A stretch of DNA of 24,000 bases from Promethearchaeota archaeon Loki_b32 (GCA_005223125.1 NJBH01000011.1:77055-101054); one strand, 5' to 3'; counted from the stretch's first letter, positions 8,069-21,640 are shown. The notes: generated by a model not told the origin, from the sequence alone. Numbers and translations are program-made.

Positions 8069-8096
8069 GGGAGATTTGGGCGAAATTCTCCCTTTT
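8069..8096 (+). terminator. GC-clamped hairpin plus T-run between convergent genes
   Basis: gggagatttgggcgaaattctccc (8069-8092) has a 6-bp GC-rich outer stem gggaga/tctccc, followed by tttt (8093-8096). It lies between the 3' ends of 6624-7937(+) and 8100-8678(-). Confidence 0.3.
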
Positions 8097-8099
8097 AAT

Positions 8100-8678
8100 T
8101 TATTGACTTACTCTTAAATAAATACCTTTATCAATTAAATTAATAGCAATAATATCTTTTGGTTTAACTTCCTGAATGTCTTGATAATCAAATTTAGACC
8201 TAATTAATGCCAGGACTTCCTCATATTTATTGATAACTAATAAGAGATCTTTCTTTCTTAAAGAAATAGGAAATTTAATTATCATATTTTTCAAAATATT
8301 ATTTCCATAAAGAATTGATTTTTCTCCTTTATCATTCACATAGATTCTTCTAAAACTAGAAAGTTTATTGTTTTTATATAAAAATTCAGCGCCTTCTAAA
8401 CTTATATGGAAATTTCCTTTCTTAATAAAACCAAAATATAAACCTGCTGAGATTATTCTATCACTTTTCAAAGATTGTAATAAGGTATATTGATCTTTTG
8501 AAATTAGAAAAATATTTGGGAATATACTTCTTGATGTTAAACTTTCTGTTGAAAAATATAAAAATTTTTTAAAATTATTAATAATTTGCTGGAAATCTGA
8601 AGAGATTTTAGTAAGTGAAGTAATTATTATTTTCTCTTCAATTTCATTGATCCTTCTAAACTCCAATGTTTCACTCAT
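8100..8678 (-). CDS. NIP7-like ribosome-biogenesis protein homologue (UPF0113 N-domain + PUA domain)
   Basis: It is collinear with eukaryotic NIP7: ISAGLYFGFIKKGNFHISLEGAEFL (compare GICLGKFTKTGKFRLHITSL), GEKSILYGNNILKNMI (compare GEMPFLYGNHVLKAHV), and the C-terminal PUA ending IDKGIYLR (compare DIGEYLR). Confidence 0.65.
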   Translation of the reverse strand: MSETLEFRRINEIEEKIIITSLTKISSDFQQIINNFKKFLYFSTESLTSRSIFPNIFLISKDQYTLLQSLKSDRIISAGLYFGFIKKGNFHISLEGAEFLYKNNKLSSFRRIYVNDKGEKSILYGNNILKNMIIKFPISLRKKDLLLVINKYEEVLALIRSKFDYQDIQEVKPKDIIAINLIDKGIYLRVSQ

Positions 8679-8757: not shown

Positions 8758-9471
8758 ATGGGTATTCGTAAGATAGAAGATGAGATTGATTTAAAAGAAG
8801 CGATGAAAAAAAAAGCAACAGAGCTAAAGATGAAAGATATGCAAGCAAAAGCCTCTGTTGAAAAATTTACGAAAGATAAGCTTAGAGAATTAGCTAAGCA
8901 ACATGGTATTTTATTAGCTCTTACACCAGAATTAAGACAAGAAGTAAAAGAGTTGCAGAAAAAGTACAATATTCCATCTTCAAAAATTATTACTGAACAA
9001 ATTACTGAGCATGACGTATTGAGAAAATTCTCTAAAATTGATTACCAAAAATTGGGAATGTTAGCATATCAGAGAGTTTTAATGAGTAAAGAAGAAACTG
9101 GAGGAATAATCCCTTTATCAGAAGTGTTTGAATTAGTGAGTACTGGAATCTTGAAAGGCAATCTTGATGTGAAAGATGTGGAAAAATCTTTAAAACTACT
9201 GAAGAAAACAAGAGTTATTGAAGACGTAACTGAATTAGATTCTGGTGCTATTATTGTTCGGTTTTTTCCGATTCAATATACAGGGGATGAAGCGAAAGTT
9301 GTTAATTTGGCTAAAGAAAAAGGCGTCCTTACTTTAGAAGATGTATGTAGTAATTTAAACTGGTCACAAGATCGTGCTATAAGAGCATTAAAGTCGCTCG
9401 AAATAAGTGGTATTACAAAATTTAGAGAAAATCTCTTAACAGGGAAACAATGGTATTTCCCATCATTATAA
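8758..9471 (+). CDS. ESCRT-II subunit, EAP30-domain protein (Vps22/Vps36-like)
   Basis: The EAP30-type core is GGIIPLSEVFELV ... KDVEKSLKLLKK ... DSGAIIVRF ... LTLEDVCSNLNWSQDRAIRALKSLEISGI ... KQWYFPSL. This corresponds to the two winged helices and the WFP(S/A)L tail of Vps22/Vps36. An N-terminal charged helix resembles the Vps22 helical extension. Confidence 0.8.
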   Translation: MGIRKIEDEIDLKEAMKKKATELKMKDMQAKASVEKFTKDKLRELAKQHGILLALTPELRQEVKELQKKYNIPSSKIITEQITEHDVLRKFSKIDYQKLGMLAYQRVLMSKEETGGIIPLSEVFELVSTGILKGNLDVKDVEKSLKLLKKTRVIEDVTELDSGAIIVRFFPIQYTGDEAKVVNLAKEKGVLTLEDVCSNLNWSQDRAIRALKSLEISGITKFRENLLTGKQWYFPSL

Positions 9472-9486
9472 TAATAGCATAATTTT

Positions 9487-10380
9487 TTATTCTAATTCAA
9501 TTTTAAACGCTAATTTTCCATTTTCTAACTTTAGGATTTTAGCTCTACGATTCTTTGCTAAAATCTTGAAAATCTCCTCCAAATCTTCAAGGGGAAGTGT
9601 ACTAAAATCTTCTTGTTTTGCTTCTCTTAATTCATATATCATAATAGGTTCGATTTTACCGTTATCATAAGCCCATTTCCATATCTCATCAGACCATACT
9701 TCAAGAGTTTTCCAGTATACTCTTAATCCTTCTTTTTTTTTTGATAACCACTTAGCTTGTTTTTGGCTAATTAATTCTTCAGCAATTTCTATTATATATT
9801 GTTCACGTTTGGTGAAATTTACAAATGGTTTATGTGTAATTACCTCTCTGGTGTATAATATATGAAGAACAGCAAATCTTACATAATCAAAAAGAACTTT
9901 TGCCCATTCTGTTTTCCATGAAATATAATCGTTTTTATTTTTATTTTTATCAGGCATTGTATACATGAATTTTTTCCTTTCTTCCTCTATCCATGGATAA
10001 GCAGTTAATAAATTTTCATAAGCAGTTAATTTTTTTTCTAATAAACCCTTTTCTCCGATAATTTCTTCTTCTAGAGTTTGCAATTCGGCTTCAACTTGCT
10101 CTGCATGCTTTTGATAAACTTTATGATCGATCTCTCCTAATTTTGAAGATAATATATCTTCTAGTTTTTCAAATTGATCTTCTATATAATCTAACTCAGT
10201 AGATTTAATTTCATCTTCTTTTATGATTTGCTTTTGAGCAGCTTCTATTTCTAACTGTTCTTTTTCTTGTTTTAATTTTCTTAATCTTGCTAATTCTTTC
10301 CTTAATTCCTCTAGCTCTTTTTCAGCTTGTTCCTTAACTTCTTTAGGAATTTCTGTAGATTTTTCTCTCTGTCTTTCCAT
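9487..10380 (-). CDS. ESCRT-II subunit Vps25-like, with long N-terminal coiled-coil extension
   Basis: The C-terminal ~165 aa is collinear with eukaryotic Vps25: YPW...ISWKTEWAKVLFDYVR ... HKPFVNF ... IIEIAEELISQKQAKWLSKKKEGLRVYWKTLEVWSDEIWKWAYDNGK...MIYELREAKQEDFSTLPLEDLEEIFKILAKNRRAKILKLENGKLAFKI. I prefer ATG 10380, which is preceded by a GAGGA-like site, over TTG 10392. Confidence 0.75.
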   Translation of the reverse strand: MERQREKSTEIPKEVKEQAEKELEELRKELARLRKLKQEKEQLEIEAAQKQIIKEDEIKSTELDYIEDQFEKLEDILSSKLGEIDHKVYQKHAEQVEAELQTLEEEIIGEKGLLEKKLTAYENLLTAYPWIEEERKKFMYTMPDKNKNKNDYISWKTEWAKVLFDYVRFAVLHILYTREVITHKPFVNFTKREQYIIEIAEELISQKQAKWLSKKKEGLRVYWKTLEVWSDEIWKWAYDNGKIEPIMIYELREAKQEDFSTLPLEDLEEIFKILAKNRRAKILKLENGKLAFKIELE

Positions 10381-10398
10381 AGTAATCCTCAAAATTTA

Positions 10399-11610
10399 TT
10401 ATACTTCTCCGAATTCCTCTGCCCAATCGTTATATTGTTTTAGTAGTGCTGGATGTGTCATTGGTTTTACTTTTTTGAGTGTTTTTTTGAAATCTTTCAA
10501 ATTAATATCTCTAACATTAACTTCTTTATTAGAATCTTCTAAAAGACCACTCATATCTAATTCACGTACTGGCAACATTATTACCTCACGACATACATTT
10601 GCAATATCTCTACCGGAATAACCCTCACTTCTAACAGCTAATTCAACGTAATCTTCATTGGATAATGCTGAATCTACTCCTTCAGTATGAATCTTAAAGA
10701 TTCCAGCTCTAGCTTTTAAATCTGGAAGAGGAACATGCACTCTTTTTTCAAATCTACTTAACATAGCATTGTCTATATCCCAAGGGCGATTTGTTGCCCC
10801 TAATACCAATAATATTTTGTCATGAGTTGATTTCAATCCTTGTATTTCACTTAATAACTGTGTTTTAACTCTTCGCTCGCCACCACTCTCAGAACCCTCT
10901 CCCCGTTTTGTTGCTACTGAATCTATTTCATCCATAAATATTAAACTAGGTGCTTTTAATCTCGCAACTTTAAACAAAGAACTGATTAATTTTTCACTTT
11001 CACCTAACCATTTGCTTAGTAAATCAGCAGAAGATGCACTAAAAAATGTAGCATTACATTCAGTTGCAGCTGCTTTCGCTAATAATGTTTTACCACATCC
11101 AGGAGGTCCAAAGAGTAATATCCCGGACCAAGGCCTTCTCGCTCCGGTAAATAATTCTGGTTTTGCTATTGGTAAAACTATAGCTTCTCTTACAGCTTGT
11201 TTAACATTTTCTAAACCTGCAATATCATTCCATTTTACATTAGGAGATTCTGTAACAATTGTACCCGATATCATATCTATGAGTTCTTGTTCTTCGGATG
11301 ATACTCCAGCTTCAGCTTTCGATTTATCATCACCCCCTGACACACCCGGTCTTCTAGAGAGTCTCGCGCTTCTAGGTCCACCAAGCTGAGATTTCAATAT
11401 TTTTGCGCGATCAACATATTCTTCGATATTTTTTTGACATAACATTCTCATCTGAGGGTTCTTATTATATTTCATAAATTGCATCAATATTTCAGCTGCA
11501 CGTTGATATTTGTTTATAGCTTGTCTGTATTTGCCCTGACTATCTAGAGCAACTGCCTCCTTTGCTGTCGATACAGCATATTGATAAAGTTTCGAATCTA
11601 CCGACGACAT
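10399..11610 (-). CDS. vps4: Vps4-type AAA+ ATPase (MIT domain + AAA + Vps4_C)
   Basis: N-terminal MIT-like three-helix region (AKEAVALDSQGKYRQAINKYQRAAEILMQFMKY...EEYVDRAKILK). Walker A GPPGCGKT, Walker B LIFMDEIDS, second region of homology GATNRPWDIDNAMLSRFEKRV, and C-terminal helix LLKQYNDWAEEFGEV. Confidence 0.93.
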   Translation of the reverse strand: MSSVDSKLYQYAVSTAKEAVALDSQGKYRQAINKYQRAAEILMQFMKYNKNPQMRMLCQKNIEEYVDRAKILKSQLGGPRSARLSRRPGVSGGDDKSKAEAGVSSEEQELIDMISGTIVTESPNVKWNDIAGLENVKQAVREAIVLPIAKPELFTGARRPWSGILLFGPPGCGKTLLAKAAATECNATFFSASSADLLSKWLGESEKLISSLFKVARLKAPSLIFMDEIDSVATKRGEGSESGGERRVKTQLLSEIQGLKSTHDKILLVLGATNRPWDIDNAMLSRFEKRVHVPLPDLKARAGIFKIHTEGVDSALSNEDYVELAVRSEGYSGRDIANVCREVIMLPVRELDMSGLLEDSNKEVNVRDINLKDFKKTLKKVKPMTHPALLKQYNDWAEEFGEV

Positions 11611-11628
11611 GATAACTTTATAAAAACA

Positions 11629-11706
11629 ATTTTATTATTTATAGCTATTCTAATTTAACAATCAGTAATATTAATAATTCTAACCGTATATATCAAATTT
11701 ACTCTT
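11629..11706. repeat. 78-bp direct repeat, copy L (pairs with 15738-15815)
   Basis: Ungapped hand alignment at an offset of 4109 bp gives 71/78 identical positions. Mismatches are at 11635, 11648, 11652, 11677, 11680, 11683 and 11685. The repeat begins 19 nt from the vps4 start codon. Confidence 0.9.
11636..11644 (-). promoter_or_regulatory. candidate TATA box of vps4 (ctataaata on the minus strand)
   Basis: It lies 25-33 nt upstream of the vps4 ATG (11610), the spacing expected for an archaeal promoter with a very short or absent leader. It is inside direct repeat copy L. Specificity is low in AT-rich DNA. Confidence 0.3.
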
Positions 11707-11910
11707 AGAAAGAAAGATAAAATATTCAACATTTATATTATTGACATATTTTAAATATAATGGAAGAAAAAGAAAAGAATTTACGCATGAACCTTTCTAG
11801 AATTCTGTTGTCAATTTAACAATTAAGTTTTATGGAATTATAAAATGTAATTATATATTTATATTTTTGAATTACCTTTATTATTTTAAAAGACAAATAT
11901 AAGAAGTGAA

Positions 11911-13101
11911 ATGGTAGAGTTCAAGATCAATAAATATATTACATTAAAACTTGAATGGAAAAAGACTAATATCTACGTAAATAACAGACTATTTAATCAG
12001 TGTAAATACATATTAACAAGAAAAAAGATCTCTGATTTAGAAGATCTCCTTGAAATGGAATCAGTCGATGAATTATCGGAAAGTTCAATAGACTCTTTTT
12101 TAGAGAATTCATGGGATGACCTTAGGGATTTTGAGCCTGAATTCATAGACATCCCAATAGAAACAAGATTCTGGGTTCATTGTTCAAATTTACAAGTCTG
12201 GGCAGAAAATAATTATGATACAAGATTACTTCATAGTAACCTCTCATTTCCCTTATTGAAGCGATTGGCGAAAGCAGGTGATCCTACTGCTAAAATGGTA
12301 TTCAAAGAAGAAATTGCTAAAAGATTTGCATCAAACTACCCTTCAGTGATAAACTTTCTCACTGAAAAGGGGTATGATGAATATTTGAGTAGGGAAGAGT
12401 TTTTTAATAGTATTCTTTCTAATAATCAAGCCGATACTATGATTGAATTAGAAAAAGTAGTGAATATGAGATACAGTCTGAATGATACTGTCAATAAACC
12501 ACTTAGGGAAGATAATGGAGAAGAAGTATACTTTGCTATAGATAATAGAAATGTCGTAGAACTTGAACTTTATTACAATGAAACACATCCAGAATATTTA
12601 TTAGATTTAATTCATAATTTCAATAAGCTAAAAGTACTATATTTATATCTTAGTGAATATACTGAAATATTTCCTAAAACATCACGGAAGTTCAATTCTT
12701 TGTTAGAATTAAAAGTTGCGATATATGGTTGGACAAAGATTCCAGATATATTTGATAAATTTCCAAATTTGAAGACTTTAGAGATTCATGGAGAAGGAAT
12801 TGTGAATGAACTAAATTCAATTACCAAACTCAAACAATTAGAAACCTTAAAACTGATCTATGTGAATATAGATAAGCTTCCAGACTCATTAGGAGACCTA
12901 AAATCGTTAAAAAATTTATTAATAAGTAATACAAATATTGATACTCTTCCAGATTCAATTGGAACCTTAAAAAATTTATCTTATCTTAGGCTATTAAGAA
13001 ACCCGTTAAAAGAATTACCGAGTTCAATAAAAAATCTAAAAAATCTAAAAAAAATAAAGTTAGATAAAAATCTTCTAGAAAATCTCAGACAAGAGAAATA
13101 A
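11911..13101 (+). CDS. leucine-rich repeat (LRR) protein with uncharacterised N-terminal domain
   Basis: The C-terminal ~150 aa consists of canonical LRRs (LKTLEIHGEGI..., LETLKLIYVNIDKLPDSLGDLKSLKNLLISNTNIDTLPDSIGTLKNLSYLRLLRNPLKELPSSIKNLKNLKKIKLDKNLL). The N-terminal 230 aa has no motif I can name. Confidence 0.8.
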   Translation: MVEFKINKYITLKLEWKKTNIYVNNRLFNQCKYILTRKKISDLEDLLEMESVDELSESSIDSFLENSWDDLRDFEPEFIDIPIETRFWVHCSNLQVWAENNYDTRLLHSNLSFPLLKRLAKAGDPTAKMVFKEEIAKRFASNYPSVINFLTEKGYDEYLSREEFFNSILSNNQADTMIELEKVVNMRYSLNDTVNKPLREDNGEEVYFAIDNRNVVELELYYNETHPEYLLDLIHNFNKLKVLYLYLSEYTEIFPKTSRKFNSLLELKVAIYGWTKIPDIFDKFPNLKTLEIHGEGIVNELNSITKLKQLETLKLIYVNIDKLPDSLGDLKSLKNLLISNTNIDTLPDSIGTLKNLSYLRLLRNPLKELPSSIKNLKNLKKIKLDKNLLENLRQEK

Positions 13102-13351
13102 TCTAATCCTCAAGAAAGATATCTCTTATCGTCTTATCGTATTTAGTAGTCCCATTCTTGATTTTATGCATATAATTTCTTATAATAACTACTTTTGAAT
13201 TCGTAAAATTAATTCTATAATAATATTCTCTATATATTATTCAATCTAATAATTTGATTTATAAATTAATTTAATAGAAAAGTTAAACTCTCAAAAAATA
13301 TATCAAAATTTATTAATTTTTGTTTAAAAAGTTTGGATTGGATACTATTCT

Positions 13352-14125
13352 ATGCTAAGTAAAATACAAAAAATTACTCTGGGTACTAAAGAGTGGGCAG
13401 ATAGCAATGTAAACTGCTACTTAGGCTGTTCAAATAATTGTCGATATTGTTATGCGAAAAAAATGGCAATAAGATTTAATAGGAGGACTGAGGATACGTG
13501 GAGAATAATGATCCCTAATCAAAAAAACATTAAAAAAGGGTATGCTAAGAGAAAAGGGAGGGTCATGTTCCCCAGTTCTCATGATATTACATATGAAAGT
13601 TTAGAAGGCTGCATTATTGTATTAGAGAAACTTTTAAATGCAGGAAACGATGTGTTGATTACTACTAAACCTAGATTAAAATGTATTAAAAAGATTTGCA
13701 GGCTTTTTTTTAAAAAAAAAGAATTAATCCAATTTAGGTTTACCATAACTTCACTTTCAAATGAACTATTAAAATTTTGGGAGCCCTTTGCTCCTTTATT
13801 TGAGGAAAGAATCAATGCATTGAAATTTGCATTTAATAAGGGTTATATGACTAGTGTCTCAATTGAGCCCTTTTTAGATGAAGACCCTTTTACCTTGGTC
13901 GAAACTCTATATCCTTATATAACTGAATCAATATGGATTGGGAAAATGAATTATGTTTTCACCAAGAATATAAAGTCTAAATTCATCAATTTTTATAACC
14001 ATATTGAAAAGATAAACTCTAAAGAAAATCTGTTAAGGATCGTAAAGAGAGCAAAAAATTATGATGAATCTATTATTAGAATTAAGGATAGCATTCATAA
14101 TTTTTTAAATAAAAACAATATATAA
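13352..14125 (+). CDS. radical-SAM-like three-Cys-motif protein (SplB/COG1533-like or phage Gp37/Gp68 DUF5131-like)
   Basis: The N-terminus KEWADSNVNCYLGCSNNCRYCYAKKMAIRF contains CxxxCxxC immediately followed by YA. This resembles both the DNA-repair-photolyase-like rSAM family (NPYxGCxxxCxYCYA) and the Gp37/Gp68 family (WNPxxGC...C..CYAxxMAxR). A TATA-like tttaaaaa lies ~25 nt upstream of the ATG. Confidence 0.65.
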   Translation: MLSKIQKITLGTKEWADSNVNCYLGCSNNCRYCYAKKMAIRFNRRTEDTWRIMIPNQKNIKKGYAKRKGRVMFPSSHDITYESLEGCIIVLEKLLNAGNDVLITTKPRLKCIKKICRLFFKKKELIQFRFTITSLSNELLKFWEPFAPLFEERINALKFAFNKGYMTSVSIEPFLDEDPFTLVETLYPYITESIWIGKMNYVFTKNIKSKFINFYNHIEKINSKENLLRIVKRAKNYDESIIRIKDSIHNFLNKNNI

Positions 14126-14291
14126 TAATTAAATCAAGATTTAAAATATTTAACAAAAAATTACTAAACTTATTATCATTGGGAAATTAAAACAATTATT
14201 ATTTTTAAATTCTATAAAGTAAAAATCGAATCTTTATGTCGGTTTTTGTCGGTTTTTATGTAATTTATACAATAATTACCTAATAATTTTA

Positions 14292-14299
14292 TTTATAAA
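14292..14299 (+). promoter_or_regulatory. candidate TATA box (tttataaa) for the TcmP-like gene
   Basis: It lies 26-33 nt upstream of ATG 14325, which favours that ATG over GTG 14301 as the start. Specificity is low in AT-rich DNA. Confidence 0.3.
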
Positions 14300-14324
14300 G
14301 GTGTTCCTTAACATTATTCATCAA

Positions 14325-15329
14325 ATGGCTAATACTAAGAAGAAAACCAATTTTGAATTTCATCTGCAAAATATAAAGAAGTTAGATAATGATTGGAGAT
14401 TTTTAGAAAAAATTCCAAATTTTCCTTATAAAAATCCAAATTTTTACTATTCTAGGGGTGATAATAGCGGATGGTGGATGGCTATCAAGCAAACCGCTTT
14501 CAGAGGATATATAACCGCATATCTCTCAATTTTGGGGAAAGTAAGTGACCGGAAACTTTATTTTATTGATCCTTTAAGTAGTTATGGTTTGGTTAGAGTT
14601 ACGAAAAATCAGGGAAAAGATAGATTTACATTCCCTGGTACTTCTATTAATGCTGAATTAATATCTAATCGTAAAAAAAAAGGATTTGATGGTTTTTATA
14701 TAAATGATTTAAAGCCTACAGAAAGAAAAATATTAAACGAGAGAATGTTGTCAATTAAAAATTATTATAAAAGTAATAGTGAAATCAACATTGACTTAAG
14801 TAACGATAGAATTGATTCTAATAAATGGCTCATTGATACAATGAGAGTTATCGATGAGGAAAATAGTTTTTATCATTGTTTGATCATAATTGATAATCAA
14901 GCTATGGATATCTATTATGATACTATTCAGCAAGTTAGAGAAATCAGTGAATTTAGTGATGTTATAATTACTTTTCAAGACGCTAATATTGCTCGAGCAG
15001 TTCCCTCAGGAACTCCAAAGATTAAGAAGTTTTTTGGATGTGAAATTCCCACTGACACAAAAGATCCAAGAAAAGTCTTATGTAATATATATTGTTCCCA
15101 ATTAAGCAAAGTTAATTTACCTAAAATTCAGAAAATGAAAGTGGCTTCTGAAAATAAATTTTACTATACATTATTATTTTGTTGTCGACAGAAAGCCACA
15201 GGAAAATGGTTTAAAATAATCAAATATTACAATGATGAAAGATTTAAGAACTTCACAGATAGAGATCAAAAAAGAATGTGGGACATTAAGGAAGGTAAAC
15301 AGCTAAGTCTTACTCATGATTGGAATTGA
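14325..15329 (+). CDS. TcmP-like (three-Cys-motif partner protein-like) hypothetical protein
   Basis: It lies immediately downstream of the CxxxCxxC gene on the same strand. The pattern W..IKQTAFRGYITAYLSIL......LYFIDPLSSYG, and later YYTLLFCC, matches my recollection of the TcmP family layout (K...L..YL..Y..IL....Y.D.F.G.G ... Y.L.F.S). Family membership is not verified. The ORF opens at GTG 14301. Confidence 0.45.
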   Translation: MANTKKKTNFEFHLQNIKKLDNDWRFLEKIPNFPYKNPNFYYSRGDNSGWWMAIKQTAFRGYITAYLSILGKVSDRKLYFIDPLSSYGLVRVTKNQGKDRFTFPGTSINAELISNRKKKGFDGFYINDLKPTERKILNERMLSIKNYYKSNSEINIDLSNDRIDSNKWLIDTMRVIDEENSFYHCLIIIDNQAMDIYYDTIQQVREISEFSDVIITFQDANIARAVPSGTPKIKKFFGCEIPTDTKDPRKVLCNIYCSQLSKVNLPKIQKMKVASENKFYYTLLFCCRQKATGKWFKIIKYYNDERFKNFTDRDQKRMWDIKEGKQLSLTHDWN

Positions 15330-15531
15330 AACGTTTTAATGATTTTTTACTATTATCCTCCTTTTTATGTTATGAAATTTGTATTATAATGTAAAAAAAA
15401 TTTCGATTAAAGAGTATCATATGACAATTTTTCCTATTTATTATTAAAATCTAATTCCCTTATTTATTAAATCATTAAAAGAACTTCATAAAATAAATAT
15501 AACATTAAGTTCATTCTTATTATTTGAGATA

Positions 15532-15738
15532 ATGCATAAAATTTTCTTTCGGAATCAAGGTCAAGGAAAAGAGATCTCATTATCTGAAGATCATCTTCTA
15601 AATATACTTATCAATGAGTTTCAATTTGCTAATGATATTGAAATTAACTTATGTTTGTTCGGGAATCTAGGGAATGAACTTTTTCTTGACCCTCACCTAG
15701 AAAGGAAATTAGAAAATGAAATTAAAGATAGAAGCTGA
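15532..15738 (+). CDS. hypothetical 68-aa ORF (doubtful)
   Basis: An open frame only, with no recognisable motif. Its stop codon abuts direct repeat copy R. Confidence 0.2.
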   Translation: MHKIFFRNQGQGKEISLSEDHLLNILINEFQFANDIEINLCLFGNLGNELFLDPHLERKLENEIKDRS

Positions 15739-15815
15739 TTTTACTATTTATAGCTAATCTTATTTAACAATCAGTAATATTAATAGTTTTATCAGTATAT
15801 ATCAAATTTACTCTT
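15738..15815. repeat. 78-bp direct repeat, copy R (pairs with 11629-11706)
   Basis: See copy L. It has the same orientation and ends 92 nt upstream of the ESCRT-III ATG (15908). It contains an identical copy of the tatttatag element (15745-15753). Confidence 0.9.
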
Positions 15816-15869
15816 TAAATGAATGAGAATAAAGAATGGTCTCCAAAAAATTAAATACCCATCATAGCA

Positions 15870-15877
15870 TTTATATA
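15870..15877 (+). promoter_or_regulatory. candidate TATA box (tttatata) for the ESCRT-III gene
   Basis: It lies 31-38 nt upstream of ATG 15908. Specificity is low in AT-rich DNA. Confidence 0.25.
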
Positions 15878-15907
15878 TTATATAATTACTAATTAGATTT
15901 GATAAAT

Positions 15908-16543
15908 ATGGGTTTTCTAAAGGATATTTCAAAATGGTTGTCTGGTGGTAAGAGTAAAGATGGTCCCCGCTCTGCTGCGATTAAATTGAAAGTATTTAAT
16001 AAAAGATTGATGAGACAAACAAAAAAATTAGAAATTAGCGCAAAACTTGCAAGAGATAAAGCCGTAAATTTAAGAAAACAGGGAGATTTAGACGGTTCAA
16101 AATTTCATGCGAGGAATTACCTTCAAGTAAAGAAGCAAGCGAGAGCTGTGGAAATGTTTCGCACCAATTTGGAAGGGCTCCTTTTCAAATTAGAACAAGC
16201 AAATGCAGTTAAAGACGTATCTCAAATCATGACAGGTATTGCCCAGTCTCTAGCAACTTTAAAAAGCCAGCTTTCGGTGCCACAAATGACACAATTGATG
16301 AGTCAAATCGACATTGACATGGAAGAATTTGCCGTTACTGCTGATATCGCAACAGACGGTATGGATAGTATCAGTATTGATACTGCTGTGATGGATTCAG
16401 ACGTATCTGAGGTTCTCGGAGAAATTGATGCCGAAATCCAGGTAGAAATGGGAGTTGCTTTACCAAGTGCGGCTTCTGGTGCTTCTGATGAGAAGATAGC
16501 TGAATTAGAGAAAGAATTAAAGCGATTGAAATCTGACGAATAA
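15908..16543 (+). CDS. ESCRT-III subunit (Snf7 family, Vps2/24/46 = CHMP1/2/3-like) with C-terminal MIM1-like helix
   Basis: A basic N-terminal helical hairpin (AIKLKVFNKRLMRQTKKLEISAKLARDKAVNLRKQGDLDGSKFHARNYLQVKKQ) is followed by an acidic C-terminal half. LSVPQMTQLMSQIDIDMEEF parallels CHMP2 MNLPQIQKIMMEFERQ. The tail is DEKIAELEKELKRLK. ATG 15908 is preferred over TTG 15899. Confidence 0.87.
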   Translation: MGFLKDISKWLSGGKSKDGPRSAAIKLKVFNKRLMRQTKKLEISAKLARDKAVNLRKQGDLDGSKFHARNYLQVKKQARAVEMFRTNLEGLLFKLEQANAVKDVSQIMTGIAQSLATLKSQLSVPQMTQLMSQIDIDMEEFAVTADIATDGMDSISIDTAVMDSDVSEVLGEIDAEIQVEMGVALPSAASGASDEKIAELEKELKRLKSDE

Positions 16544-16745
16544 AGTTAGTCTTTTTATTATTCACTTAATTTAATCACTCGGCAAAATTGAGGCAAGTTT
16601 GATTTTTATATTCAATTTTTAATCAATAATCAAGATCTTTTTTCAAAAGATAAGAAATAATAAAAAATATAAGTATTTCCTTTAGATTAAATTTAAAAAG
16701 ATACTAAATAATTATTGATTTAATTATATAACTATTTTGAGCAGA

Positions 16746-17297
16746 ATGGATTTTAACTTTAAAGTTATTATTATTGGACCTCCTGCTGTGGGTAAGACAA
16801 GCCTTCTAAATAGATTTATACATAACGACTTTAAATTGAGTTATAAAATGACTGTTGGTGTTGATTTTTTAACTAAAGCTTTGGAATATGAACCATCCAA
16901 ATTTGTTAAACTCCATATTTGGGATATAGGAGGTCAAGAAAAATTTAAATTTCTCCATCGTAGCTTTTACGAAGGCGCATTTGGTGCATTTATTGTATTT
17001 GATCTCTTAAGACATCAAACATTTTCAAGTATGAAAACTTGGCTTTCAGAAATGCGTAGCATTGTAATTGATGATATTCCTAAAGTAATAATAGGAAATA
17101 AGTCCGATTTAATACCTGAAATTGGTCAGATTATAGATAGGAGTGAAGTAGAAGAATATGCAAAAAAAAAAGGCTGTTTTTATGTTGAAACATCAGCTAA
17201 AACCGGAGAAAATGTTGAAAATGCTTTTCTCGAACTTACAAATCGCATGATAGAGAAAATGGGGAAGATTATTAACAATAATAAAGAAAATCTATAA
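16746..17297 (+). CDS. Rab/Ras-like small GTPase
   Basis: All five G boxes are present: G1 GPPAVGKTS, G2 TVGVDF, G3 WDIGGQEKF, G4 GNKSDL, G5 ETSAKTGENV. There is no C-terminal Cys prenylation motif (the protein ends NNNKENL). ATG 16746 is preferred over TTG 16737. Confidence 0.9.
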   Translation: MDFNFKVIIIGPPAVGKTSLLNRFIHNDFKLSYKMTVGVDFLTKALEYEPSKFVKLHIWDIGGQEKFKFLHRSFYEGAFGAFIVFDLLRHQTFSSMKTWLSEMRSIVIDDIPKVIIGNKSDLIPEIGQIIDRSEVEEYAKKKGCFYVETSAKTGENVENAFLELTNRMIEKMGKIINNNKENL

Positions 17298-18450: not shown

Positions 18451-18516
18451 ACAATTAGAATTTCTAAGAATCATTAAATTTTAATTTTTTAATATATTCT
18501 TATTATTATTAAAAAT

Positions 18517-18588
18517 GCGCTCTTAGTATAGTGGTTAGTATGCCAGGTTGCCAACCTGGCGACCCGGGTTCAATTCCCGGAGGGCGCA
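18517..18588 (+). tRNA. tRNA-Gly (anticodon GCC)
   Basis: The cloverleaf folds by hand. Acceptor stem gcgctct/agggcgc; anticodon stem ccagg/cctgg with loop ttGCCaa; T arm ccggg-ttcaatt-cccgg; discriminator a. It is 72 nt with no encoded CCA, and a T-run follows. Confidence 0.9.
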
Positions 18589-18623
18589 TTTTAAACTATT
18601 AATCTAAAATTAAGGAGTCTAAT

Positions 18624-20037: not shown

Positions 20038-20348
20038 TTTTAAAAATGAATTGAATTATGAATACAAGAGATAATAAGGAAATGTTCTATAAATATATTT
20101 GTTTATAAGGAAACATTTCCTTTTTCCTCACATCCATAAAAGTCCTATAGTGAATGCTGTATTTCCTTATTATTTAAATAATATTTAGAAATTGTTAAAA
20201 TAATAATCGAAAAAAATAGATTCTTTTTATGAGAGAAAAGAAGAACTAAAAAAGTTCAAATGATTAATGTTATATTCCGGAGATAATACCAACATAATAC
20301 CCCGAAATATATAACAACACGTGAAAGGTCTGTTTCACGAAAGTTTAA

Positions 20349-20612
20349 AAAATTGATCATGAATTTTTATATGATACTCTTCAGTATGTAAAAAACAGAA
20401 ACCTCGCTCTTAATGAATGTATAAGAGTTCTTAAGGGTGATGGTGTAATTGTAGTTATAGAATGGAACAAAAAGCAAATTGAAAAAGTGTACAAGAAATA
20501 TGGCTACAAAATTGAATTTATGGACCCTAGAGGTTATCTTAAAAGGAATGATATTTCATTTGATGTTTTAAAAGGAGATATAGTAAACATATACCTACTT
20601 TGGAAAAAATAG
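20349..20612 (+). pseudogene. 3' remnant of a class I SAM-dependent methyltransferase (no start codon, lacks the SAM-binding N-terminal half)
   Basis: Hand translation gives KIDHEFLYDTLQYVKNRNLALNECIRVLKGDGVIVVIEWNKKQIEKVYKKYGYKIEFMDPRG...LLWKK*. This matches the post-motif-II part of Methyltransf_11-type enzymes (h.h...AL.E..RVLK.GG.hhh.-w). The frame is closed by TAA at 20346, and no GxGxG motif I is found upstream in any frame. Confidence 0.5.
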
Positions 20613-20642
20613 CAGAATATATTTAGAAATATAGGTAATTTT

Positions 20643-21278
20643 TTAGGGATCTATATCTCTTAATTTATTGAAAAATTCATCGGGATCATCTATTCCCGAC
20701 CTTAATAGCACACATTCCTTATGTATATCAAGTTTTTTGCTATTTAATTCTAGATAATCCTTATCTAATTCATTTTCAAAACGTAACCAACACCCCAAAG
20801 CATCAGAATAATCTTGCCACCCTCCAAATACTAGTTTACTCAATATGTAATCTTCTTTTGAGGCGACCCAACACTCAATTCCGGCAAAATTAATTTTAAG
20901 CCTTCTCTTTAGACCTAGTGGTCCAATTTTTTTATAATTACTAAGGCTTTTTTGATCAATGATATAATTATCAAATTTAATAATTTGTTGCTTATCTAAA
21001 AATTGTAATAAATGGATATCCTTAGCAAGTTTTGCAGCTGAATCCCAGTCTTGTATAGGAAAAAATTCATTTTTTTTTAATATTGTTATATATGTATCTA
21101 AATTATGATTAACTGAATAAATATCAACAACGAAATCAATATCTTGAGTTGTTCTCGTTTCAGAATAAATGCTCACTAAAATTCCCCCAACTAAATAATA
21201 TTTAATACCAAATTCTCTCTCAATTTTTTCTAAAAAATTAACAATTTGAAAAAAAGCTTTTTCATATCGTATTTCCAT
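20643..21278 (-). CDS. nucleotidyltransferase-fold protein (AbiEii/DUF1814-like or DUF6036-like; putative toxin)
   Basis: YYLVGGILVSIYSETRTTQDIDFVVDI matches the GG-x(n)-R-x-[ST]-x-D-[IL]-D minimal NTase motif seen in AbiEii-type toxins. It lies 3 nt downstream of a 77-aa ORF on the same strand. Confidence 0.55.
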   Translation of the reverse strand: MEIRYEKAFFQIVNFLEKIEREFGIKYYLVGGILVSIYSETRTTQDIDFVVDIYSVNHNLDTYITILKKNEFFPIQDWDSAAKLAKDIHLLQFLDKQQIIKFDNYIIDQKSLSNYKKIGPLGLKRRLKINFAGIECWVASKEDYILSKLVFGGWQDYSDALGCWLRFENELDKDYLELNSKKLDIHKECVLLRSGIDDPDEFFNKLRDIDP

Positions 21279-21281
21279 AAT

Positions 21282-21515
21282 TCATTTTCTCCTTTTCATT
21301 TTTTCATTGATTTTAAACATTTTGATAATGATATCTTTAATAGATTTATTCGGATATCTCTCCTTTTCTATATTAATGTAATTATTTAAATTAAAATTAC
21401 ATAGTTCAAAAAAAAGCGATATAGAAGCTTCAGTTGGTATTTTTTTCATCAATTCTATTCTTCCTTTAAAATTTCGTGCTATTTTTCTAAAATTTTTGTT
21501 TGAGTCAATTGTCAT
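21282..21515 (-). CDS. small 77-aa protein, putative partner (antitoxin-like) of the nucleotidyltransferase
   Basis: It is tightly coupled to the downstream NTase gene (3-nt gap). It has a basic C-terminus (KMKRRK) and no recognisable motif. Confidence 0.35.
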   Translation of the reverse strand: MTIDSNKNFRKIARNFKGRIELMKKIPTEASISLFFELCNFNLNNYINIEKERYPNKSIKDIIIKMFKINEKMKRRK

Positions 21516-21640
21516 TTATTCTTTCATCTAAGATTTTATCTTTATAATGTTGATTCCTTTAAATATAATAATAGGAAAAAGGTTTATTAATATTTTAGAA
21601 ACCTTTAGATTTTCATTATCCTTACTTGTTAATTTATATT

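Follow-up and report, generated by a model that had tools for sequence, protein, structure and literature searches.

Flexible genomic islands, which replace or add genes, are exchanged by homologous recombination in conserved flanks and are known from marine bacteria and from haloarchaea such as Haloquadratum. Duplication–degeneration–complementation, or subfunctionalization, is an established concept that classically concerns duplicated genes with modular enhancers. Archaeal integrative elements flanked by att sites use SSV-type and pNOB8-type integrases, and those of Asgard archaea are found at tRNA genes (PMC8813620, PMC11529989). We analyzed a stretch of 24,000 nucleotides from Promethearchaeota archaeon Loki_b32 (GCA_005223125.1, NJBH01000011.1:77055-101054; hereafter the window, with positions counted from its first letter), in which two ESCRT genes central to membrane remodeling, vps4 and the gene for ESCRT-III, are split by an islet of accessory genes bounded by two direct copies of a 78-nt element that we call C. 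We favor, with reasonable but far from complete confidence, the interpretation that this accessory islet lies in the divergent promoter region of vps4 and ESCRT-III and was imported by homologous recombination. The literature on Asgard ESCRT clusters (PMC9192718) and mobile elements (PMC8813620) mentions no insertions, interruptions, or promoters at this site.

The geometry of the repeat is as originally predicted: the copies at 11629-11706 (copy L) and 15738-15815 (copy R) agree at 71 of 78 positions, have the same orientation, and lie 4109 nt apart, with 18 nt between the vps4 ATG and copy L and 92 nt from copy R to the ESCRT-III ATG at 15908. At twice the length of the next one (45 nt at 76%), it is the longest direct repeat of the window. 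When extended (11629-11720 vs. 15738-15829), 80 of 92 positions are identical, and the extension past 11706 is weak. The core of element C is TTTAACAATCAGTAATATTAATA, and the exact 23-mer core common to both copies occurs twice in the window against 0.01 occurrences expected from shuffles. Both junctions are found at 100% identity in independent assemblies from two other sequencing runs, one contig (L021; contigs compared with the window are given L numbers) corresponding to 11650-14384 and another (L020) to 13154-15774.

Joining the outer flanks through one copy of C predicts a spacer of 18+78+92 = 188 nt, and the measured empty sites in relatives are 189 nt long. A 1.3-kb contig (L001) codes for an ESCRT-III protein identical to that of the window and has a divergent vps4 189 nt away, with one 78-mer between, and the same empty arrangement is present on every contig with a 97 to 98% identical Vps4 (L002-L008 and L019). 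Empty sites are found also in distant lineages at ∼82% nucleotide identity (L009, L012, and L014), so that an empty site with a single repeat copy is represented by L001-L009, L012, L014, and L019. To the left of the single copy, these contigs correspond to the window left of copy L and, to the right, to the window right of copy R. The comparison of orthologous loci called for by the original prediction thus gave the anticipated outcome: in all close relatives examined, and in distant ones, vps4 and ESCRT-III are divergent, adjacent, and separated by a single 78-mer, and the insertion polymorphism with its predicted empty site of ∼188 bp was found. This shows that the islet is real and strain variable and that the site is empty in most relatives.

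The 78-mer is confined to this locus. In exact-match searches, which diverged copies could escape, the 23-mer core had 0 matches in 2.9 million viral contigs, 4 in one-genome-per-species contigs, and 7 in JGI metagenomes. All matches but one fall in the vps4/ESCRT-III spacer, and every extended match is at this locus. The concern that the repeat might be a dispersed intergenic element was not borne out, as three species-level genomes each have a single copy per contig, always at this locus, and two copies are present solely where the vps4/ESCRT-III pair is split. The single outlier (L015, positions 1381-1403 of the 361-kb contig Ga0208647_1000003) has an unrelated context and no further similarity; we treated it as a chance match, as probably arises in AT-rich DNA.

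The sequence around the islet is mosaic. Compared with the closest empty relative (L004), the window is 97 to 99% identical from Vps25 through vps4 and copy L, the mismatches on this left side being sparse and the final ones lying at 11575, 11683, and 11687. On the right side, 60 mismatches fall within 446 nt (15744 to 16183), followed by 1 mismatch in the next 248 nt and thereafter ∼1.6%. The affinity of the right-hand tract is to another lineage, represented by L024: the linker and ESCRT-III promoter (15816-15907) are 100% identical to L024 vs. ∼80 to 87% to close empty-site relatives, and the first 276 nt of ESCRT-III (15908-16183) are 99.3% identical to L024 and 87% to L004, whereas the remainder of the gene is 91.7% identical to L024 and 99.2% to L004. 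Copy R is identical to the R copies of L024 and L016 across the common 73 nt, with an exact 23-mer core. Copy L is identical to that of L004 save for 11683 and 11687, and these two odd bases (CTAACCGT) match the L copy of L024. Overall, the tract that runs from the islet through copy R and the ESCRT-III promoter to nt 276 of the gene is 99 to 100% identical to a lineage whose identity is otherwise ∼87 to 93%. The crossovers are located inside copy L on the left and between 16183 and 16257, within ESCRT-III, on the right. The resulting ESCRT-III protein is identical to that of L001 and differs by 2 residues from that of L004 despite 39 nucleotide differences.

The flanking tracts are thus of discordant phylogenetic affinity with sharp crossover points, although there is a small chance of an assembly chimera. 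Given a tract of foreign affinity between recipient-type flanks, import of an islet-bearing allele by homologous recombination is the simplest reading. A second and different mosaic is found in L016, in which an islet-type copy R is joined to a type-A linker and ESCRT-III across just 24 shared bases. Elsewhere in the window, the NIP7-like gene (8100-8678) is ∼90% identical to L002, L004, and L007, vs. 98 to 100% for the adjacent spacer and EAP30 gene, and appears from these identities to be a second divergent recombinant tract with a donor outside the sampled lineages. Taken together, the join in L016 and the NIP7-like tract imply that such exchange seems common. The parts of the locus are as follows.

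10399-11610, minus strand: vps4, AAA ATPase with MIT and Vps4_C domains; recipient-type flank, 97-99% identity to the empty-site contigs L004 and L005
11611-11628, minus strand: spacer of 18 nt from the vps4 ATG to copy L; putative vps4 transcription start region; single in the window, not duplicated
11629-11706: copy L of the 78-nt element C; contains the predicted vps4 TATA box CTATAAAT (minus strand)
11707-11813, plus strand: left end of the islet; AT-rich, with TATA-like motifs; loose similarity to the left end of the L017 islet
11814-13183, plus strand: LRR module, consisting of a conserved upstream block and a gene for a 396-aa LRR protein (11911-13101)
13224-15367, plus strand: two-gene module, consisting of a radical SAM protein gene (13352-14125) and its 342-aa TcmP-like partner (14301-15329)
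15532-15738, plus strand: doubtful open reading frame (ORF) of 68 aa; its stop codon reaches into copy R by one base
15738-15815: copy R of the 78-nt element C; donor type; spare vps4-type TATA box directed leftward into the islet
15816-15907, plus strand: variable linker and putative ESCRT-III core promoter with boxes TTTATATA / TTATATAA
15908-16543, plus strand: ESCRT-III, Snf7 family; 15908-16183 of donor type, 16184 onward of recipient type
11683-16183: whole tract with foreign (L024-like lineage) affinity, from the right end of copy L through the islet, copy R, and the ESCRT-III promoter to nt 276 of ESCRT-III

Element C has the features expected of a regulatory module. Between lineages, it is 92 to 95% identical, with the third codon positions of vps4 at 63 to 75% and the linker and promoter at 63 to 76%; as it is more conserved than synonymous sites, C is under strong constraint. 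At its left end, on the minus strand, CTATAAAT is located at -33 to -26 from the vps4 ATG, a geometry compatible with an archaeal TATA box for a transcript that is leaderless or nearly so. The TATA boxes of ESCRT-III are not part of C but belong to the 92-nt flank, and C itself spans -93 to -170 from the ESCRT-III ATG. The 23-mer core is exact in five of five R copies and mutated or partly deleted in two of four L copies, while the R copies have lost or altered the vps4-proximal (left) end. This complementary loss of parts would fit a situation where each gene needs a copy, and we infer that C is a duplicated cis-regulatory module that both genes need and not an att site. A structured RNA or RNA gene within the repeat was considered and rejected: Rfam at E ≤ 0.1 gave merely a tRNA-Gly and a chance tmRNA fragment elsewhere, and folding z-scores of both copies on both strands ranged from -1.05 to +1.14.

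As the original prediction had noted, the vps4 TATA box is present in copy R as well, where it faces the islet. In a group of alleles typified by L018, the start codon of a beta-propeller gene is 33 nt from the TATA box of copy R, the same spacing as that of vps4 from its own TATA box, and in L016 and L024 a 75-aa ORF on the minus strand starts ∼70 nt from it. In the window, no minus-strand ORF of at least 20 aa starts near copy R, and antisense transcription from copy R into the cassette is plausible.

The site has been found in five states: empty, with a beta-propeller gene, with LRR, radical SAM, and TcmP-like genes, with LRR and small ORFs, and with HEPN, DUF4365, and LRR genes. The L018 type (L018, L013, L025, L026, and L027) consists of vps4, copy L, one minus-strand SBBP beta-propeller gene, copy R, and ESCRT-III; it encodes a membrane protein of 447 to 459 aa and was seen in at least four samples on contigs of up to 81 kb. 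In L024, a 69-kb contig (GCA_030619785.1), a 7.2-kb islet lies between two C copies and contains genes for a HEPN_RiboL-PSP protein, a 347-aa protein, DUF4365, an LRR protein 94% identical to that of the window and inverted, and ORFs of 97 and 75 aa. Two contigs give partial views: L016 has the LRR gene of the window (99.7% identity), ∼670 nt of different DNA, the 75-aa ORF, and copy R, and L017 has copy L, the left end of the L018 type, a block ∼90% identical to the region upstream of the LRR gene in the window, and a beta-propeller gene. Because the islets share pieces, namely the LRR module, the right junction with the 75-aa gene (L016 and L024), and the left end (L017 and L018), they are related by descent and rearrangement and are not independent insertions. 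A possible exception is the binned genome SCS4bin.30, which splits the gene pair in another way. One of its contigs (L010) carries vps4 and the entire spacer followed by a peroxiredoxin-like gene where ESCRT-III is expected, while in another (L011, 5397-5477; JAZGEW010000021) a 41-nt internal fragment of NIP7 is fused to a 46-nt 5′ fragment of vps4, followed by the spacer and ESCRT-III. The fragments in L011 suggest that at least one duplication, of an ESCRT-II/vps4 segment, may have started much larger and then decayed.

Some features of these alleles are of separate interest. Within L024 (5383-9297), the DUF4365 protein is restriction-endonuclease-like, with a weak PADLOC match to PDC-M02A, and accompanies the HEPN_RiboL-PSP protein, suggesting defense-type cargo at the same site. 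The LRR gene and its upstream block are inverted between the window (11814-13183) or L016 and L024 (16350-17710 in reverse-complement coordinates); inverted repeats bounding this module amount to a weak pair of 19 nt at 79%, which is not convincing. In L016, a GC-rich and hairpin-rich segment (1030-1130) with a GGAUCCUUCGGUGUC-like stem-loop stands out in the AT-rich islet; it has no tRNA or Rfam match and is possibly a novel small RNA.

The boundaries of the repeat differ among the occupied alleles. Right copies start at position 1, 6, or ∼9 of the 78-mer, with one boundary 64 nt further out, within a vps4 remnant, and left copies end at +78, +97, or ∼+178. The duplication reaches further only in L024, by 19 nt, in L010, where it takes in the whole spacer, and in L011, with its vps4 fragment. 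For the window and L018, a search for a longer hidden duplication, such as a remnant of vps4 or of the ESCRT-III promoter beside the repeats, gave local alignments no better than shuffles. There are thus no fixed att-core boundaries across the occupied alleles. An integrase or transposase, noted as absent from the start, is indeed lacking: the Pfam scan gave no such domain in any large ORF of the window, and no recombinase is present among the precomputed Pfam matches of every occupied allele. No free or relocated copy of the element bearing an attP was found by exact match to the 23-mer in the viral, genome, and metagenome collections, and there is no tRNA or tRNA fragment as an attachment site in the islet or in the occupied relatives. 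Terminal inverted repeats are lacking at the ends of the insert, and the duplicated stretch varies in length, being at least 78 nt long. The idea that the repeat is an att-like target duplication is not supported, given the lack of a recombinase, the boundaries that vary by allele, and an acquisition that resembles homologous recombination.

The cargo of the window consists of the LRR module, which is 99.7% identical in L016 in the same orientation and 94% identical in L024 when inverted, and the two-gene module. The radical SAM protein of the latter matches weakly to TIGR04470, "radical SAM mobile pair protein B" (44.5 bits vs. a cut-off of 410 bits), and also to DUF5131. In PADLOC, the 342-aa protein matches PDC-M41A (7.7e-12) and the radical SAM protein PDC-M41B (1.4e-6), the two genes being adjacent. 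The 342-aa protein had no match to any NCBIfam family; its 45 homologues are all from Promethearchaeota or unnamed metagenome sequences, and 2 of the 45 are named TcmP by NCBI, the TcmP-named homologues showing 46 to 50% identity. As to the earlier description of a TcmP-like and radical-SAM-like pair of mobile contexts, the TIGR04470 match and the TcmP-named homologues speak for it, whereas the scores are far below the curated cut-offs. We regard the pair as a Lokiarchaeia-specific subfamily of putative function and, plausibly, as a candidate defense module; it is present in other genomic contexts in other Lokiarchaeia (L022 and L023). The 68-aa ORF, doubted from the outset, has no family match and, among the fetched loci, no homologue except in the identical contig L020. 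No relatives of the LRR or TcmP-like proteins were found in viral contigs, and the PHROG matches of the cargo are to families of unknown function. Base composition, which had been proposed as a check, does not mark the cassette as foreign and was uninformative: the GC content of the islet is 0.266 vs. 0.264 to 0.300 for the other segments compared, and its tetranucleotide distance is within the native range, at the upper edge.

We propose that this genome gained the islet from an islet-bearing relative through homologous recombination, for which the conserved repeat and ESCRT-III provided the homology arms, and that the islet was probably moved by such ordinary recombination rather than as a self-mobile element. 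The repeat would be a duplicated piece of a bidirectional promoter, kept since the separated essential genes may each need their own copy, with copy L providing the TATA box of vps4 and copy R the conserved upstream core for ESCRT-III. One or two past events, either segmental duplication or additive recombination, may have given rise to the duplication, and its redundant parts would then have decayed to different extents; the variable repeat boundaries would be explained by this unequal decay. The spare vps4-type promoter in copy R could drive islet genes, plausibly so in the L018 type, and would act as antisense in the window. Several observations weigh against this scenario. L020 and L021 confirm both junctions but span neither switch point, and an assembly chimera is possible in principle. 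The pattern of complementary degeneration is based on just four or five alleles, and recent recombination with single-copy alleles, and not selection, could account for part of the conservation of copy R. What points to a regulatory role of C, and to promoter activity of copy R, is their position and conservation only. The duplication event itself was not observed; no vps4 remnant is detectable beside copy R in the window or L018, and L010 and L011 are separate contigs of one bin whose joint structure is not proven.

The mosaic part of the evidence, though not the islet, might have been produced by assembly, the islet of an L024-like strain being joined to the flanks of a co-occurring empty-site strain via shared k-mers. 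The switch intervals are identical stretches of 34 nt (11649-11682) and 73 nt (16184-16256), short contigs of other runs break inside the repeat, and several lineages co-occur in such sediments. Nevertheless, a chimera needs two independent switches, one of them over merely 34 identical bases, and the islet of the window is not that of L024, given its diverged and inverted LRR module and otherwise unlike cargo; the different mosaic of L016, over 24 shared bases, and the divergent NIP7-like tract on the same contig also argue against an artifact, which we consider unlikely. We hold a similarly low opinion of the possibility that occupation came first and that the empty sites arose later, through repeated deletion of the islet by recombination between the direct repeats. 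Direct repeats of 78 nt favor such deletions, the L and R copies differ by 9 to 14% within a genome and look old, and islets of different lineages have pieces in common. The divergence of the two copies in the window is, however, explained by their coming from two lineages, and empty sites are present in all sampled lineages, including the most distant (L009 and L012), and in every close relative, while none of them shows the expected deletion hybrid, a type-A′ vps4 joined to a type-B linker.

That the islet is what remains of a virus- or plasmid-like element that integrated by means of a tyrosine or SSV-type integrase, with the 78-mer as attB and the repeats as attL and attR, the integrase and most of the element having been lost and other cargo gained, seems to us quite unlikely. 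This would account for direct repeats flanking the insert and for the exact single-copy empty sites, for a left junction shared to the base (after ACTCTT) by the window and L017/L018, and for a gene pair of the kind annotated in mobile contexts and present at other loci. On the other hand, neither the window nor the occupied alleles contain an integrase, transposase, or remnant of one, the repeat boundaries vary between alleles, and the 78-mer is never seen outside the locus, with no match in viral contigs and the 23-mer alone in L015. Moreover, known Asgard integrative elements use tRNA sites (PMC8813620), and the 446 nt of donor chromosome co-acquired beyond the repeat are not something that site-specific integration brings along. 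Integron-like exchange, in which the 78-nt element would be a dedicated cassette-capture site and a recombinase encoded elsewhere or an unrecognized protein would insert and exchange promoterless genes, is very improbable; if true, a captured gene would come under the spare vps4-type promoter and the expression of variable surface or defense genes would be tied to the ESCRT/cell-division program. The least credible of the explanations, to which we give next to no weight, is that the repeats represent the target-site duplication of a transposon or a dispersed promoter element or miniature inverted-repeat transposable element flanking the insert by chance: the same-orientation repeats do flank the insert, but 78 nt far exceeds the length of known target-site duplications, neither terminal inverted repeats nor a transposase is present, and the element is single copy per genome outside the occupied sites and confined to this locus; copy number and location already refute this reading. 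Import of the islet by homologous recombination remains the interpretation we prefer.

The window is AT-rich, with a GC content of ∼28%, and encodes the ESCRT cluster of a Lokiarchaeial (Asgard) archaeon, and the closest homologues of its Vps4 are exclusively from Lokiarchaeia/Promethearchaeota. The gene identities initially proposed for vps4, ESCRT-III, the LRR gene, and the radical SAM gene were borne out by domain matches (AAA, MIT, and Vps4_C; Snf7; LRR; and radical SAM, respectively). The neighboring genes are as follows.

8100-8678, minus strand: NIP7-like PUA protein
8758-9471, plus strand: EAP30/Vps22-36
9487-10392, minus strand: Vps25
16737-17297, plus strand: Ras-like GTPase

Two other indels in the window lack a flanking repeat. 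One is a 1.2-kb insert at 20341-21557, which consists of a DUF6036 nucleotidyltransferase gene (20643-21278, minus strand) and a 77-aa ORF (21282-21515, minus strand) and is possibly a toxin–antitoxin-like module; it is absent from the close relative L002, which has ∼30 to 40 unrelated bases in its place. The other is a gene for a 1030-aa protein with no Pfam match, present solely in L002 (13513-16765) between the NIP7-like gene and a 437-aa gene and missing from the window at ∼8093-8099, the junction having no long repeat. A tRNA-Gly(GCC) gene at 18516-18589, between a PfkB-family kinase gene and a metallo-beta-lactamase-fold gene, has no insertion associated with it.

To our knowledge, almost nothing is known of the regulation of Asgard ESCRT genes. 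The split-promoter alleles that occur naturally at this locus reveal which parts travel with vps4 and which with ESCRT-III and provide a testable handle on this regulation. The locus also offers a clean case of gene flow between Lokiarchaeial lineages ∼10% apart, with crossovers placed at base level and one of them inside an essential gene, the protein of which is unchanged. Finally, it calls for caution in reading the synteny of ESCRT clusters in Asgard metagenome bins, as strain-variable cargo can interrupt it and assemblies break at the repeat.

Among known systems, the pair of cargo genes resembles PDC-M41 and the radical SAM "mobile pair," or DUF5131 with its three-Cys-motif partner TcmP, in having adjacent radical-SAM-like and partner genes, although the scores fall far short of the NCBIfam cut-offs and PDC systems are themselves candidates only. 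The islet as a whole is similar to att-flanked archaeal elements in that direct repeats flank it and relatives have an empty site with one repeat copy, but differs from them in having no integrase, a non-tRNA target, variable boundaries, donor DNA beyond the repeat, and no free form found. As in duplication–degeneration–complementation, a shared regulatory region is duplicated and complementary parts seem to have been lost from the two copies, the vps4-proximal end from R and, in some alleles, the core from L; here, however, the promoter module alone is duplicated, the two genes are different, and the pattern is known from sequence alone. With flexible genomic islands, the locus shares a single position that holds different or no accessory cargo among related strains, flanking recombination tracts of differing affinity, surface- or defense-type cargo, and the lack of dedicated mobility genes, whereas its islet is very small (1.5 to 7 kb), is bounded by a duplicated promoter segment, and lies inside the bidirectional promoter of two core ESCRT genes and not between the ends of tRNA or housekeeping genes. 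The closest known kind is thus a flexible genomic islet exchanged through homologous flanks and not a new kind of mobile element.

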